Shown piece after piece: positions 3,972 through 19,975 of a stretch of 64,000 nt of DNA (position 1 is its first letter; each line of letters begins with the position of its first letter). The translations under genes were made by a program, and so were the position numbers. This DNA comes from Rhizodiscina lignyota (lineage: Eukaryota), in contig ML978123.1 of assembly GCA_010015805.1 (NCBI GenBank), forward strand, positions 1,798,001-1,862,000, in the 5' to 3' direction. A model generated the notes under the pieces. It worked only from the letters and a program-made list of their open reading frames with translations, had not been told where the DNA came from and made no database searches.

Positions 3972-5482
<1,511 letters not shown>

Positions 5483-13706: not shown

Positions 13707-14803
13707 GACAGACAAAGAGCAGGTGTCGCCCCTATGCAAAAGTCAGGAGGCTTTGCGGAGCGTTTGTCCACGGTGACGCTCAAGCGCGAGTGGTGCTAGC
13801 GGAAGGATGGAAGGTTACACGGGTTCTGGATTGTATTATAGTTGGGTTTCGACTGCTACAAACTTGCAGATAACGAATAACGAATCTATGACACCGCAAG
13901 CCCTTACGTGCAGAAGGATTAGGCGATTATTGGATGGCACGACGGAGACGATTCCGGGTTATGTCCCATTCGCCCTCCGATGAGTCCCATCGCCATAAAT
14001 AGAGCCCGTTGCAATTCCACACACTTGCCTCGTACTTAGCGAAAGATATGGTACAATTCAGCTCCTCTGTAACCATCGATTAGTTGTTTCACCATGCTAT
14101 AATTACAATGCCATTCTCGTAGCTTCCCACGCCTCGCTAGACATCTCCAGCTTACGCCCGTCCATGTGCAAGGCGCCGCAGGGACCATGCGCTGCTGGGA
14201 TCAGCTTTCGAGCGTGAACTTGGCAGCCGGAGCGGCTTTTGACGGGTCGGTTTGCTTCTCGATCTTCGTCGCCTCCTCCGTCTGCGTAGCATGATCAACA
14301 GAGGGGCTGTCATGAGACGATTGCTCATCTGATATCGCGGGGCAAACAGTCGTCATATATCGACCATTGTAGAGATGCACGGGAGCAGCAGCAGCAGAGT
14401 ACGGGATGATGTCAAAAGCACCCACGCACGTTGACTATTACTAGCGGCTAAGGAGATTGCACGCCCGCAAAGCAACGACTCGCCGCTCGGACGTTCGTTG
14501 CTCAACAACAACATTTTGGCCGCTTCTTCGCGCCATCTGAAGCTGTATCGGTGTCTGACACCATCAATTGACCTTCCCGTGCGCCCTGAAGACACTGTGT
14601 TCAGCGTCAAGCGCGCTCGAATCCATTTCTCCATGGATGCATGAGCTTCGGCTCCATCATCGTGCAGCAACGGCGACGGCGAGGCGGGGTGAGCTTGGGA
14701 CAGCTTCAATCACACCAGCTTCTCCCTCAACCACTCGTCGAAAGACCTTTCCTTCATAGTCGCTCTTTTGCGAAAAAGCCGTGTGCGAATTCAAAATTCC
14801 ACA

Positions 14804-17800
14804 ATGGCCAGCCTTGGTGGTGAAGACGTTTACTGCACGGTATGCAAAGAAATGGAATCCGAAGTCCGAGTCCTTGCAGCATAGAAACTGACTAGCTTCT
14901 AGCTCCTCATGAGCGATTCTTATCTGCCAGGTAACGTCGTACCGCACCTAATTCATCATCCATGTACTTACGGACTACTACAGGAGCTGTAGTACTAGCA
15001 CATTCGTTACGAGATGCAGGAACGAAGAAGAAACTGGCTTGTTTAATTACGCTCGACACCCTCTCCGCAGACACAATCACCGAGCTCAGAGTGAGTTTGC
15101 AATCCCCTATTTTATCTCGATACAAGCCTAATGGTTGTTTGACAGGAGCTGTATGACTACCTAATACCTGTCGAGCGTATTGCCAATCCACAACCTGCCA
15201 ACCTCTACTCTATGCAGAGACCCGATCTACTCTTTGCATTTACGAAAATTGCCCTCTGGAGACAAACGCAGTTTCGGAAGATAGTCTACATTGATGCCGA
15301 TGTTGTTGCACTACGCGCTCCCGACGAGCTGTTCAACATTGAAGCCCCCTTCGCCGCAGCACCCGATATTGGCTGGCCGGATGCTTTCAACAGCGGTGTC
15401 ATGGTCATTACACCAAATATGGGGGATTACTGGGCACTTCAGACATTGGCAGCCAGCGGAGACAGCTTCGACGGAGCAGACCAGGGGCTGCTAAACCAAT
15501 ACTACGAACATCGAGGGTGGGAGAGGATAAGCTTCACATACAACTGCACACCAAACGCCCAGTATCAGTGGGAGCCGGCGTACAAGTACTACAAGAGCAG
15601 AATAGCAATGGTACACTTCATAGGCACAGACAAGCCGTGGGTAAAAGGGCGGCATGTGAGAGGCCCAGGTACCTACAATGATTTGCTGAGCCGGTGGTGG
15701 GCGGTTCACGATCGACATCTGAAGCCGGTAAGTACGTAAATGGAGACGTCTTTTGCAATGGCTGAGTTACTACCAAGGTCTTCACTCCCGAGGCTCCGCT
15801 GCCAGCACCAAGCGTTGTTGAGAGGTATGTTGAAGGCGAAAATATTGGCCAACAGGTTGCACAATCCGAGCCTCCACCCCCACCAGAGGCACCTCCCCTA
15901 TCGACGGAAGAGCCCTTCTCAGAGCCTGGAGAAAGGGTGGAAAACATAGAACAAGGCAGAGAACAACCAGTCCCAACTGTCGAGCAGCGAAGATTCTCCG
16001 CTCCAAAGATACAGTGGGATGCCACACGGTACATCTTTCCCCCCCTTATTATTAATCAACCATTACGATGCTTTGATGAAGATGCTCATTGCATTGGAAC
16101 TTTGAACTGACCGACGAGCAGTTCCGAGCCTCCGAGGGAATCTATCCCAGAGGCTGCGAACTTCCCAAGTCAGACATATGACTTTTCGGCCTCGAGACAA
16201 CTTTTCCAGGCACCAGCGGCGTATCCAGAACCGCCGAAGGACATGTGGTACGATTTACCAGCCACAAAACCGACTCCGCAAGTTGTGCCAAAGCCAATCT
16301 TCCCGTGGGAACGAGAGCGTGGCCCTCAGAAGCCAACCAGGATATTTGCCGAGGACCTTCAAGCACCAGAGTCACCAAAGGTCAGCACACCCACACTAAT
16401 CTTGACCCCTACGCGAGAAGAGGGCGACAGCAGGAGTACGACACCTACGCCGCAAGAGATTGTCCCAGAAGACCCAATTTCCCCGCAACCGTTCGCGCCT
16501 ACAGATAATGCATGGGACCATGTCGCTGGCATTGAACGCTATGTACGAGCGGTTCTCGGCGCGCAGAATAAGGCCAAGCCAACGGCCCCAACGATTCCGG
16601 CTGGACTCGCAGGAATGGGCATCTTATCCCCTTCATCACCATCACCGGGGCGGCCATCCGCCGGAGGTGCATCTGGAGATCGACAAAGACGGAAAGAGAG
16701 TTTAATACTAACAGATTTCCCCTCCGCGGTGGAGCGACCGAGTCTTCCAGTAACGCCAGCGCCGATACGAAGGCCAACATTCTGGGGCGAGGAAAGGGAT
16801 GATAGAGGTAATCTGCCAGCTGCAGAAGGTGTTCCGGATCAAGTTGATTGGGTATGTCCGTCTTGTGGATTTGTTGCAGACAGTCCTATTGCATTTGCGA
16901 GACCTAGGCGTGAGCACGTTCATAAAGAGGAGCTGGACTTGGAGCCTTTGCCAGATGCGGAACCGGATCTTGCCGAGGAGGTAGAGTACTACCCGGACGA
17001 GCCAGAGACCATCGTTCAGCTGGGAGAAACACAACCTGAGGATGAGTCTGAGCCGCAAGCTGGAATTGCACAATCTTTGAGAGACGCCTTGGTTGAATCC
17101 AAACCCGAAGCGAAACCAGTACCCCAACAGGAATCAGAGCAAGCTACTGAGATACCAACGACGGCGGCCACCGAGATGGATATAACTGAAGCAGTACTTC
17201 CGGTGATAATGGACGCGAAGCACGAACGACACAGTAGCTCGGCTGACTCCGGATTCTCAGTCGCAAGCACCATGGTAGAACCCAGTATTCCGGCCGTCGC
17301 AGAAGCGCCTTCTGTTCCTCCACGGCCTCGACCTCAGAATACGGGTCCCTTCTGGATGCCGTCCTACGCTCCTCTTCGTACCGAGCCGAAAGACACAATG
17401 TCCTATGGAACCATAATCAACATCCCCGAGCAGGCCGTCGTATCAACTCCACCAGCAGAGGTTCGCTCAGAACCGCAGACCGAAGTTTATCCAGATCCGC
17501 CGCTCAAAGTCCCTTCAGATCTTCCTGCCGATCCTTCAGATCCACCAGTCGAAGTTCCCTCAGACCCGCCCGTCAAAGCTCCCTCAGATCCGCCAATCGA
17601 AGTTCCCTCAGACCTGTCAATGAAGGCTCCCTCAGATCCACCAGTTGAAGTTCCCTCAGATCCCTCAGATCCTGATCTCCAAGAAGGCCCCGGCCCAGCT
17701 CCTCAAACCTCTGCTCCATAGCCTCGACGTTCTCGGTCTCGCTGTAAATTATCATCATATATAATCATATGTCTGCGTATTTGGTGTACTACTTATTCCT

Positions 17801-18337
17801 AGCACACGTCCATTCTCGTACCTCTTATACAGCGCGTATATTATCATATCAGCCCTCTCGGCTTGCTTCGCTTCGCATTCGCTTCCATATACCCGTACGC
17901 TTACATCCGCTTTCCCAAAGGATCCCGCAAAACAGCTCGAGTCGCTGCGCCGCTCGTCACTCATCGAATTCGAATCGCTCAACCTCATCGACCCTAACAA
18001 GATTACGTCCCCGAAGCGCGAGCTGCCCGAGCACAGCGTCCCAACGCCTCCACCGAAAAAGGGCCTAGCGGCACAAGAGGTCACGACCAGCCCGCCTGTT
18101 GAGGAAGAAGAGATAGAAATCAAGGCGCCAGTGGCGCAGAGAGATTTTGGATACCCACCAGCAGTTGCGTCGGCAGTTGAGGAAGAGCCGCCAAGTGAGG
18201 GGAAATTGACGTTCAGGGAGCCGAATTTTGGGAAGGGAGAAGAGGAGGATGTTGGGACAGAGCAGATCGAGAGCATGGCATCGGAGCTAGAGGTTGAGGC
18301 GGATGATGGATACTTCAAGAGTCCGACTGAAGCTTGA
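14804..18337 (+). CDS. Glycogenin (GT8 self-glucosylating initiator) with long Pro-rich C-terminus; two possible terminal exons (stop at 17721 or 18337)
   Basis: EDVYCTLLMSDSYLPGAVVLAHSLRD, FTKIALWRQTQFRKIVYIDAD, FNSGVMV, SFDGADQGLLN, HFIGTDKPW, LTDFPSAVERPSLPVTPAPIRRPTFWGEERD. Confidence 0.92.
17480..17675 (+). repeat. Imperfect 24-bp coding tandem repeat (PSDPP(V/I)(E/K)(V/A) units)
   Basis: Repeated CCCTCAGA(T/C)CC(A/G)CC cores encoding PSDPPVEV PSDPPVKA PSDPPIEV PSDLSMKA PSDPPVEV. Confidence 0.85.
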
Positions 18338-18853
18338 AGTTGTCGTCGGAAATGGTGGTCGGTCAGGTTTCGTTGCGACAATTTCCCATTCTCTTTTCAC
18401 TGCAACGACTTTTACTCTCTTCTCGGTTTAACGATTTCAGCGTGCTGCTGCTGTACCGATATGGGCGGATACCTTGTCGCTTGGGGGTTTTCACAGGTTG
18501 CGTTTTGGCGGATGGTGAAATTGATCCCTTCTGTACATGTAGCACGATGCGATGCTTTCACGTTGGTACCAGGTACTCTCATACTTTCTACAGTACAGCA
18601 TAGCGATGCTTTTCCTTTAGTAACGAATCTAATCTATTGTACAAAGTTGAGTACTTTCGTCTCCCGCCCACCCATTAGTCTTCACCATTGACCCCTGCAG
18701 TGCACGCATGTGACTTTGCCAGGCATAATTCATGAGCACTACGGCGCAGCGATGCTGAAAGGGAGGCTCTCTGTTGCAATAATCCGCCCGCCTAATTCTT
18801 CCCGTAATTTCAAGCGGAATGGTACGAGTCCCAACTTTGAGCCATCACGCATT

Positions 18854-19975
18854 TTAGAAAAGCCCTAGAAGCGGGAAAACTCGTCTGTCTTTCACAGCCT
18901 CCTCTCCGAATCTTTTCGCGTACCACTCCCTAGTTTCGATGGCAGTAACACCCAGATTCACGACCACCAACACCAACGCACAGGAGAGCGTCTTGTTGGC
19001 CCAATGGCCCTCTGGCGCAGCCATAAAGGTCAAGTAGCCATAAGTGGACATCTCAACGAGATAATGAGGTGTAAACGTGGCTTTGAAGGGTCCGTAATCA
19101 GGGAGGCTATATTTGGGTTGGGCGACATTGGAGTTCGCTTGACCGCGAGGGCGTGTGCGGAGGTTGTAGAGGTACCGGTGTAACTTGTGTTGAAGCCACA
19201 TGGAGCGAATAGCCAGGACTCCTGTGCAGATGAAGGCTGCTAAGAACCAGCTACGGTGGGCGAAGCTGAGCTCAGGTCTCCGTCCCAAGAGGCAGGCTGG
19301 AAATGAAGTTAGCAACAGGTCGCAAATGCAAGAGCATCCAGAAGACACATACGGCTGCCTTCAATCCACACGCCGACGCCGACTGCGAGGTAAAACAGCA
19401 TGCCCATGATGTAATGTCCAACCCACATCCGCGAGTCCGAGTTCGTTCGAAAAGCGACACACTCATAAAGACGCCGGCAGCCTTGCAACGCCATCATCAT
19501 CTGGAGAATCACGATTTGCATTTTATCCATGCTGGGCCTGGCGGGATCAACGCTTTCGGCGAGAAGGCGGAAAGGAAGGCTGTTGGTCCAAATCACATAG
19601 AGCCAGAACAGGTTAGATGCCACGGAGGCAACATAGAAGTGAGTGAACCAGCTACGAGGAACAGTTAACGTGGAAAAGTAGTCCAGGAATGCTGAGAATC
19701 CGCCTCCGTTTCGCTCGCCTCCGTTCGACGCTGGCTTCTCGGGATCGTTCTTGGGATCTGAAGTCGCTCTGGCACCGTAGGCAAGGAAGCGGTTGCGAAA
19801 AGCTGGGACGTTGTAGACAAACAGCACCTGGTGAGAGAATAAGAGTTTAGCAACGGCATCAATTGATATGGTGAGCTACAGTGGCGGCCGAGAGAATGAA
19901 AATGGAGCGGAGAACGACAACGGCGTCGACAGCAGCCGTCATGCTGTCGAGCATTGCTATCGAGCTGTCCGGCAT
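18854..19975 (-). CDS. DFG10: Polyprenol/polyprenal reductase (steroid 5-alpha-reductase family, Dfg10/SRD5A3-like)
   Basis: FLAYGAR, TVPRSWFTHFY, QGCRRLYEC, SRMWVGHY, PHYLVE, VVVNLG, WYAKRFG; two introns. Confidence 0.8.

Follow-up and report, generated by a model that had tools for sequence, protein, structure and literature searches.

The gene at positions 14804-18337 on the + strand of the window (the whole 64,000-nucleotide stretch of Rhizodiscina lignyota DNA that was analysed) is a Dothideomycete glycogenin with seven exons. The features of the locus are listed below.

14804-14839, + strand: exon 1, starting with ATG and encoding MASLGGEDVYCT; the N-terminus agrees with relatives
14840-14902, + strand: intron 1, 63 nt
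14903-14930, + strand: exon 2 (LLMSDSYLPG)
14931-14983, + strand: intron 2, 53 nt
14984-15090, + strand: exon 3
15091-15145, + strand: intron 3, 55 nt
15146-15727, + strand: exon 4, core of the GT8 catalytic domain (PF01501; 4UEG), with a D-A-D motif and a Tyr that falls on the acceptor Tyr of glycogenins in alignment
15728-15777, + strand: intron 4, 50 nt
15778-16028, + strand: exon 5, linker
16029-16121, + strand: intron 5, 93 nt
16122-16851, + strand: exon 6, conserved fungal tail blocks with the C-terminal end ...AEGVPDQVDW; 54-58% identity with relatives
16852-17920, + strand: intron 6, putatively dual-use, 1069 nt, phase 0, GTATGT...AG; same position in 44/80 related loci
16852-17721, + strand: nested reading frame, 289 codons and TAG, continuous with exon 6
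16855-16872, + strand: C-P-S-C-G-F knuckle motif, holding the sole two Cys of the nested tail; 91/120 homologues
17197-17379, + strand: conserved block in the distal part of the nested frame (...NTGPFWMPSYAPLR); 61 aa aligned to P0001 at 52% identity, pairwise E 4e-8
17492-17663, + strand: in-frame tandem repeat, period 24/48 nt, PSDPP-type
17722-17920, + strand: non-coding remainder of intron 6, GC 0.447, with TATATA at 17758-17763 and CTTAC at 17900-17904
17921-18337, + strand: exon 7, 138 codons and TGA, conserved C-terminal module from DPAKQLESLRRSSL... to ...SPTEA; 60% identity over 50 aa to P0009
17948-17959, + strand: R-R-S-S, carrying an RR.S motif that is invariant in 10 aligned spliced or intron-less relatives

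The GT8 catalytic domain matched PF01501 in Pfam (E 9.6e-16; 58.6 bits, cut-off 24.3). Twenty PDB sequences were found at E <= 1e-10, comprising 19 of glycogenin-1 or -2 and one of another GT8 sugar transferase (6MW5), and the best match was human glycogenin-2 (4UEG, E 1.5e-35). On alignment, the D-x-D sugar-nucleotide/metal motif reads 'yiDaDvv' in the window and 'flDaDtl' in glycogenin-2, and 'naqYqw' of the window falls on 'ntmYty'; the motif of the relative P0044, identical to the latter motif of the window, was aligned to 'isiYsy' of glycogenin-1. The tyrosine at this place is the established self-glucosylation acceptor of glycogenin (Y195 in human GN1). A Y195F mutant is used in PMC9188544.

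Exon 6 ends in a TGG codon directly followed by GTATGT (16849-16857, with the donor G at 16852), while exon 7 opens with GAT at 17921 behind the acceptor ...cccaaAG (AG at 17919-17920) and a branch-like CTTAC at 17900-17904. The frame of exon 7 runs from DPAKQLESLRRSSLIEFE... to SPTEA and a TGA at 18335-18337. The pair 16852/17920 is the sole consensus in-frame donor/acceptor pair that reaches exon 7; the donor is a full consensus and does not itself suggest inefficient splicing. Intron 6 has 11-21 times the length of the five upstream introns of the gene. Joining of 16851 to 17921 gives a product of 716 amino acids and read-through gives one of 867. In the retained mRNA, over 600 nt would follow the stop codon unless polyadenylation took place within 17722-17920. 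When the message is left unspliced, the reading frame continues from exon 6 through 289 further codons (VCPSCGF...), up to the TAG at 17719-17721. An earlier sequence-only reading of the locus had placed the donor, acceptor, branch-like motif and final stop at the same positions and had estimated the frame at about 290 codons. Its description of the nested tail as acidic and proline-rich, beginning with a CxxC and ending in repeats, was likewise confirmed (pI 4.08, 19% D+E, 19% Pro, a tandem repeat). The tail contains two Cys, and none occurs in exon 6 (from 16123) or exon 7.

It was found that GT directly follows the same Trp codon in 44 of 80 related metagenomic loci, and that AG stands immediately 5' of [ND]P in the 34 loci with a recognisable downstream exon. 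Among relatives, L009 corresponds to L007 without its 328-nt intron and L016/L017 correspond to L019/L022 without 390 nt (0-1 mismatches in the 150 nt on each side in both cases), and the protein P0044 is P0009 without the 104 residues VCPRCGF...SESD. The upstream introns of L007 are also absent from L009. The shared position, together with the exact removal in these three genomic/spliced pairs, indicates that intron 6 is a real intron.

The nested open frame exceeds chance. Dinucleotide-preserving shuffles of intron 6 never reached 289 open codons (0/5000; mean 27, maximum 229), nor did shuffles of the ORF part alone (0/5000; maximum 253), and the other two sense frames of the nested ORF hold 8 and 13 stops. 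The codon score of the nested frame is +0.187 bits per codon in frame, a value bracketed by those of 10 reference exons (0.138-0.335), and -0.146 and -0.449 out of frame; the remainder of intron 6 scores -0.19, -0.02 and -0.11 in its three frames.

The beginning of the nested frame is widely shared. W-V-C..C was read in 91 of 120 homologues, the first residues being V-C-P-x-C-G-F, and synonymous variation was observed among homologues in the P, C, G and F codons of C-P-x-C-G-F. GTATGT has two roles, as splice donor and as the codons for Val-Cys in the conserved W-V-C-P-x-C-G-F. In three pairs of relatives, taken from loci chosen for long frames, the in-frame dN/dS was 0.22 (bootstrap CI 0.11-0.37), 0.36 (0.17-0.74) and 0.60 (0.32-1.08), the last interval reaching 1, and shifted frames gave 0.58-1.84; the pair L001/L002 was uninformative. 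No other frame was consistently open, and an overlapping or antisense gene was rejected as the source of the constraint. These results show that, in relatives, the nested frame is constrained at the protein level. For the window itself, the evidence of constraint is protein-level conservation with the nearest relative, P0001, in which the same frame is open for at least 164 codons. Although 46 gap positions intervene, P0001 aligns with both ends of the nested tail (E 2e-14); with the first 22 residues left out, E is 4e-8.

Fifteen of the 22 loci that keep the CxxC have 106-137 open codons, equal to 0.75-0.96 of the intron, and the 22 loci without it all fall below 100 (range 1-80). Half of the intron-bearing loci, 22 of 44, have a decayed nested frame, so many lineages can dispense with it. 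Outside the first ~22 residues and a single distal block, P0001 was the one homologue of the tail of the window gene detectable by HMMER among the 1.84 billion representatives of the whole library. The search with the nested frame gave 17 matches, 16 of which lay on the proline repeat, with P0001 as the only non-repeat match; the four repeat matches inspected (P0121, P0124, P0126 and P0127) proved to be unrelated repeat proteins. A word search restricted to residues 244-532 gave no match at E <= 10. These searches indicate that the long acidic tail is mostly lineage-specific.

Exon 7 is conserved at both its start (D/N-P...L..LRR.S) and its end (SPTE). It shows 60% identity over 50 aa with residues 692-741 of P0009 (pairwise E 3e-13), a homologous exon lies behind the AG in 34 loci, and its codon score in frame, 0.333 bits per codon, is the highest of the gene. 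A word search of proteins with exon 7 gave no match at E <= 1e-3, and the homology was established by pairwise and locus comparison. AlphaFold2, run on a profile of spliced junction regions, placed one helix just after the junction (mean pLDDT 64), spanning the homologous PEEKLDQLRRS of L016. Exon 7 is the second half of a block of ~45 residues that is split by intron 6, rather than the far terminus of a short binding peptide.

Since the intron, the distal exon and the nested frame are all conserved, both tails look selected. The view of the sequence-only reading that such a stop-free frame is unlikely without selection agrees with the shuffles and with the in-frame dN/dS of 0.22-0.60 in the three pairs, and comparison of both tails with relatives found the nested frame and the distal exon each conserved. 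Its proposal of two alternative C-termini stands as far as this conservation of intron 6, exon 7 and nested frame goes; its other part, the use of both forms, was not matched by a provable retained transcript in relatives.

At the junction, the 120 homologues divide into 99 read-through, 11 spliced (W joined to [ND]P), five hybrid and five without a junction. The provable transcript-like copies in relatives (L009, L016, L017, L023 and P0044) are all spliced, and a provable retained-intron transcript was not found among 47 non-NCBI read-through proteins of relatives, of which P0114 is the only one with a complete, spliced-looking N-terminus. Most metagenomic read-through 'proteins' begin at internal Met or Val codons, as plain genomic ORF calls would. 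Full-length read-through proteins on short contigs were rejected as transcript evidence, as most upstream introns are missing from Pleosporales-type genomic loci and nearly all of these proteins have internal start codons.

The consensus donor and the splicing of every provable transcript-like copy would suit an ordinary, constitutively removed intron, with the 716-aa glycogenin as the sole functional product and the nested frame as a relic or by-product that gives no useful protein. The loss of the frame in 22 of 44 intron-bearing loci and the low complexity and lineage specificity of the distal tail fit the same explanation, and one dN/dS interval reaches 1; the intervals of the other two pairs exclude 1, however, and none of the 5000 shuffles gave 289 open codons. 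An ordinary intron would also leave unexplained a codon usage that is exon-like in frame only, and the retention of C-P-x-C-G-F, with synonymous changes, well past the six bases of the donor. The frame has survived many indels relative to P0001, and long frames accompany an intact CxxC (15/22 against 0/22). On this evidence, constitutive removal of a meaningless frame is regarded as unlikely. The reverse arrangement, in which read-through is the main or only product and exon 7 is a vestige rarely or never joined, could account for the absence of exon 7 from 99 of the 120 listed homologue models and for the exceptional length of intron 6 within the gene. Most of the metagenomic read-through proteins, though, start at internal codons, and a vestige would not be expected to stay intact over 138 codons, to be conserved at its start and end, to have the best codon score of the gene and to be exactly joined in transcript-like copies of relatives. 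As donor, acceptor and phase are all intact too, this arrangement is considered very improbable.

A further form, in which the nested frame is spliced to exon 7 from a second donor close to its own end, giving one long protein with both tails, has been modelled at NCBI for five of the 120 homologues (Glonium, Ascochyta, Neodidymelliopsis, Didymosphaeria and Boeremia; P0009, P0070, P0071, P0097 and P0116). Against these models, the transcript-like P0044 of Glonium uses the donor at the Trp codon and not a second one. In the window, no in-phase GT within 16853-17721 scores more than 2 of 4, and the only other frame-preserving pairs combine weak donors with an acceptor at 17852 that is not conserved; this form is considered very unlikely. 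The frame ends inside a tandem repeat, a kind of sequence that is error-prone for assemblies, and a sequencing or assembly artefact might be suspected. A separately built Logan contig (72.7 kb, depth 148) of the DNA-like run X1 nevertheless shows zero differences over 14700-18700 and no joints, although the assembly was probably derived from it or from the same reads, so that it is not independent support, and the same arrangement is present in relatives; an artefact is hardly credible.

We therefore favour, as reasonably likely, the explanation that the last glycogenin intron serves as both intron and coding sequence and provides two alternative tails; the locus probably holds a conserved dual-use intron with two C-termini. 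In the spliced form, which would be the main product, the block ...RRPTFWGEER...AEGVPDQVDW would run on into DPAKQLESLRRSSL..., adding a predicted short helix with the invariant RR.S and then an acidic tail ending in SPTEA. In the retained form, translation would continue past the Trp codon, with the donor GTATGT read as the Val-Cys that opens the V-C-P-x-C-G-F knuckle, and a 289-residue acidic, proline-rich and probably disordered tail would extend to the TAG at 17721, without the helix/RR.S module. Both mRNAs are presumably made in R. lignyota, the retained form would be translated and useful, and the switch of tails may alter what the glycogen primer binds or how it is regulated; the sequence-only reading had suggested a difference in coupling to glycogen synthase.

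A broader interpretation is put forward tentatively. Across Dothideomycetes, the last glycogenin intron might be a conserved translated switch, in which splicing completes the conserved block with its short helix and invariant RR.S (a site of the basophilic kinase type), whereas retention swaps in a half-knuckle, C-P-x-C-G, and an acidic tail that evolves fast. Such a half-knuckle might be paired across the two subunits of a glycogenin dimer or with a partner, and the primer could toggle between two states of binding or regulation, for example in stress, dormancy or sporulation. How the primer meets glycogen synthase is set by the glycogenin tail. Particle size in vitro is reported in PMC9188544 to be governed by the length of the linker. 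If true, a class-wide swap of the C-terminal module would be a new control layer over carbohydrate storage in a group rich in plant pathogens and stress-tolerant fungi, and a clean example of an intron under protein-coding selection. Public annotations of the glycogenin locus conflict between and within species, as in Glonium (P0009 and P0044), Macrophomina (P0007 and P0019) and Boeremia (P0083 and P0116), and the true gene structure, once known, would correct many gene models.

The glycogenins of human (GYG1/GYG2), yeast (Glg1/Glg2) and Neurospora (GNN) resemble the window gene in the catalytic domain, the D-x-D motif and the aligned acceptor Tyr. A long variable region after the catalytic domain, as in the window gene, is described for glycogenins in PMC9188544. 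The tail of the window gene, at about 450-600 residues, is far longer than that of other glycogenins and has fungal-specific conserved blocks, the last of which, unlike in the others, is interrupted by an intron that would itself be coding. No block of it was linked by sequence search to the solved synthase-binding peptide of glycogenins (~34 residues): PDB searches with exon 7, with exon 6 plus the nested frame, with a profile of 10 spliced junction regions and with full-length P0044 each found no glycogenin chain matching outside the catalytic domain. Glycogen synthase was absent among the 65 ORFs scanned in the window (of 88 ORFs of at least 130 codons). The D-W-V-C-P-x-C-G motif of the window is like the second knuckle of rubredoxin, but with a non-significant E of 3.1, and no Pfam family matched the knuckle of the nested tail. 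A single knuckle is insufficient alone for metal binding, and the nested frame, with two Cys in total, lacks the four metal ligands from two knuckles that mark a rubredoxin or zinc-ribbon site. Complex prediction for Zn with two copies of a 70-residue read-through junction peptide gave no support for a complex (score 0.00).

No description of alternative C-termini of fungal glycogenin was found in the literature searched, which included part of PMC11126952. The arrangement is like fungal intron retention with alternative C-termini in its phase-0 last intron, its intronic stop and the lack of a downstream exon junction. Among fungi, intron retention is the most common form of alternative splicing. 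The glycogenin case differs from ordinary examples in that a large part of a fungal class conserves the frame at the protein level, that the frame fills 75-96% of the intron in relatives keeping it, and that the six donor bases also serve as two conserved codons. Splice isoforms of human GYG1 (for example 'Isoform GN-1 of Glycogenin-1') are likewise proteins of one gene that differ after the catalytic domain. In the human isoforms it is the linker that varies, and the synthase-binding peptide at the C-terminus is retained, whereas the window gene would exchange its whole C-terminal module.

The gene that hosts the intron lies on the + strand of the window in seven exons and, judging by its catalytic domain, belongs to the glycogenin family. 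The exon 4 product matched 19 distinct sequences of solved glycogenin-1/-2, 4UEG being the top match (E 1.5e-35), and in alignment to solved glycogenins the window protein has the D-x-D motif and a Tyr at the self-glucosylation position. The nearest named homologues are Dothideomycete glycogenins (Mytilinidion, Aplosporella, Lepidopterella, Glonium, Patellaria and Eremomyces; 48-58% identity over the conserved tail). The protein has 716 residues if intron 6 is spliced and 867 if it is read through; the other introns measure 50-93 nt.

Exons of the glycogenin gene, with intron 6 and the frame nested in it (window positions)
14804-14839, + strand: exon 1
14903-14930, + strand: exon 2
14984-15090, + strand: exon 3
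15146-15727, + strand: exon 4, GT8 domain core (PF01501, E 9.6e-16)
15778-16028, + strand: exon 5
16122-16851, + strand: exon 6
16852-17920, + strand: intron 6
16852-17721, + strand: nested (read-through) frame
17921-18337, + strand: exon 7 (distal exon), 138 codons

Downstream, a convergent gene with a steroid 5-alpha-reductase-like domain (18854-19875, - strand; PF02544, E 1.5e-6) has an open frame that stops near 18854, leaving about 516 nt (18338-18853) for both 3' UTRs. An antisense open frame of 213 codons (17755-18396, - strand) overlaps the distal exon; it had no Pfam match and is probably a by-product of coding-strand composition.

The borders proposed in the sequence-only reading were found in the window: TGG followed by GTATGT at 16849-16857, and an AG at 17919-17920 with CTTAC at 17900-17904. 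The pair 16852/17920 is the sole consensus in-frame donor/acceptor pair leading to the distal exon; the remaining in-phase GT sites score at most 2 of 4 as donors, and other frame-preserving pairs consist only of weak donors with a non-conserved acceptor at 17852. Among related loci on metagenome contigs (best 80 of 221 relatives), GT stands directly 3' of the homologous Trp codon in 44 and the Trp is followed immediately by [DN][PS] in 17, 19 being left unclassified under the stricter pattern. An AG immediately precedes the [DN]P codon in the 34 loci whose downstream exon is recognisable, with introns of 58-771 nt, all exceeded by the 1069 nt of the window intron. Exact removal was observed in three relatives: locus L009 equals L007 minus a 328-nt intron (0 mismatches across 150 nt each side), L016 and L017 equal L019/L022 minus 390 nt (0-1 mismatches), and protein P0044 equals P0009 minus 104 residues, VCPRCGF...SESD. 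Since the upstream introns of L007 are also absent from L009, the latter is taken to be a spliced transcript. L023 has an unbroken full-length frame with a W/NP junction, its genomic partner being absent among the loci. Of the 17 intron-less loci, 13 are unlike these spliced copies, and nine of the 13 (L055, L057, L063, L065, L067, L069, L073, L075 and L076) were noted as long contigs of genomic DNA from more distant fungi in which the intron is just missing; on this comparison, then, the position of the intron is old, and whether it is present varies among fungi. From these alignments the intron is judged real, and it is almost certainly spliced as had been proposed.

The 138-codon frame closing at 18337, also claimed earlier, is by its similarity and composition a genuine exon. 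It is 60% identical to P0009, a Glonium model, over residues 692-741 of the latter (pairwise E 3e-13), its SPTEA terminus is similar to the ...LSPTER ends of relatives, and on a codon-usage measure built from 10 further long coding ORFs in the window no other part of the gene reaches its 0.333 bits per codon. Across 10 relatives that are spliced or lack the intron, conservation is unbroken over the junction (F-W-G-x-E-R ... G-V-P-x-Q-x-x-W / x-P ... L-x-x-L-R-R-x-S), so that the intron divides one conserved block. AlphaFold2 on the junction profile predicted one helix right after the junction (L016-segment residues 53-63; block pLDDT 81, mean only 64). The R-R-x-S right after the junction (17948-17959), which fits the consensus for basophilic kinases, is invariant in 10/10 of these aligned relatives. 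R-R-x-S was also seen in many nested frames, about 15-20 residues past the CxxC (e.g. ...FQRRRESLAS...). A candidate basophilic kinase site may thus be present in each of the two alternative tails, about equally far from the Trp.

The nested frame was confirmed as 289 codons from VCPSCGF to TAG at 17719-17721, with an acidic, proline-rich product (pI 4.08, 19% D+E, 19% Pro) and a terminal 24/48-nt repeat. That 870 stop-free nucleotides are unlikely by chance held up, as 0/5000 shuffles gave 289 open codons. GC content is 0.548 in the frame, 0.56 in exons and 0.447 in the 199 nt by which the intron extends past the frame. The codon score is +0.187 bits per codon in frame, partly owing to the absence of stops, against -0.146 and -0.449 out of frame; it falls inside the 0.138-0.335 that real exons span in leave-one-out scoring, and the intron remainder and 3' flank are negative in all frames. 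The frame is more than an accident. A stretch of it, ...APSVPPRPRPQNTGPFW (17269-17355), weakly resembles ...ERPSLPVTPAPIRRPTFW of exon 6 (16723-16788); the likeness, which surfaced through P0001 and is not significant (E 0.12-0.13), could reflect an old internal duplication.

In relatives, W-V-C-x-x-C continues in 91 of the 120 homologues listed, five of the 91 being also joined to the distal exon; the others are read-through without the motif (13), spliced (11) or without the junction (5). Val and the first Cys are invariably encoded by GTA TGT, as the donor requires those bases. The later Pro, Cys, Gly and Phe codons of this knuckle differ synonymously (CCN, TGT/TGC, GGN, TTT/TTC), which points to selection on protein rather than RNA. 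The dN/dS comparison suggested earlier gave Nei-Gojobori omega below 1 in three pairs, from loci few in number and picked for long frames: 0.22 (L015/L048; bootstrap CI 0.11-0.37), 0.36 (L003/L004; 0.17-0.74) and 0.60 (L028/L031; 0.32-1.08). With a one- or two-base shift of the same alignments, omega was 0.58-1.84. The L001/L002 pair is too alike for an informative omega; in its nested frame, after the W at 4676, dS is 0.010 and dN 0.008, far below the dS of 0.11 in the exons to either side, which suggests extra nucleotide-level constraint or recent segment exchange. Where the CxxC is kept, 15/22 loci have 106-137 open codons, occupying 0.75-0.96 of the intron; where it is absent, 0/22 have at least 100. 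No second frame was consistently open in the relatives. In L032, the homologous intron is down to 58 nt, retains the GTATGT start and, translated as VCLRYTFSS..., still recognisably preserves a vestige of the knuckle frame.

In the nearest relative, P0001 (73% identity in exon 6), the frame stays open through 164 codons or more. P0001 matches the window in 19/22 residues at the frame start and, despite 46 gap positions, again in the same frame at a distal block, NTGPFW.PSY.PLR (pairwise E 2e-14; 4e-8 once the first 22 residues are removed). P0002, P0005 and P0006 (Mytilinidion, Lepidopterella and a Glonium-like contig) share the ending ...SESD[VI]DA[VI]VALL... right before the stop, and the frame is thus conserved to its very end in that clade; the motif is absent from the window and P0001.

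Against a working second isoform stands the fact that all provable transcript-like copies in relatives are the spliced form. Metagenome read-through "proteins" mostly begin at internal codons, like plain ORF calls on genomic DNA, and only P0114 has a complete N-terminus, judged from the protein alone. Half of the loci with the intron, among the best 80 of 221 relatives, have a decayed frame. For most of the acidic tail of the window, P0001 was the only homologue found among 1.84 billion representatives; the proline repeat accounts for 16 other matches, four of which were inspected and rejected as unrelated proteins. The full two-isoform reading is nevertheless moderately favoured. Splicing would give the canonical enzyme with the whole conserved block, the predicted helix and the putative kinase site; with retention, a C-P-x-C-G half-knuckle and an acidic, disordered tail would take the place of the spliced module. 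Translation of the retained form would end 199 nt upstream of the 3' splice site; 37 nt past that stop, in the AT-richer intron remainder, lies TATATA (17758-17763), which looks like a yeast 3'-end efficiency element. This candidate signal could permit polyadenylation within the intron; otherwise the 3' UTR of the retained mRNA would exceed 600 nt. Searches of PDB sequences linked neither tail to a solved synthase-binding peptide of glycogenin.

At this locus, public gene models for one species or genus conflict (P0007/P0019, P0083/P0116, P0009/P0044, P0043/P0104): some read through, some are spliced and some are hybrids. Annotation of the locus is widely wrong or inconsistent. Targeted literature searches on glycogenin found no description of the arrangement among the papers listed. 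The knuckle is like the second knuckle of rubredoxin at motif level only (E 3.1), the nested tail of the window having two Cys only. Within fungal intron retention the arrangement is a special case, set apart by protein-level conservation of the retained frame across much of a class, by a frame that takes up nearly the whole intron in species keeping it, and by a donor hexamer that doubles as two conserved codons.
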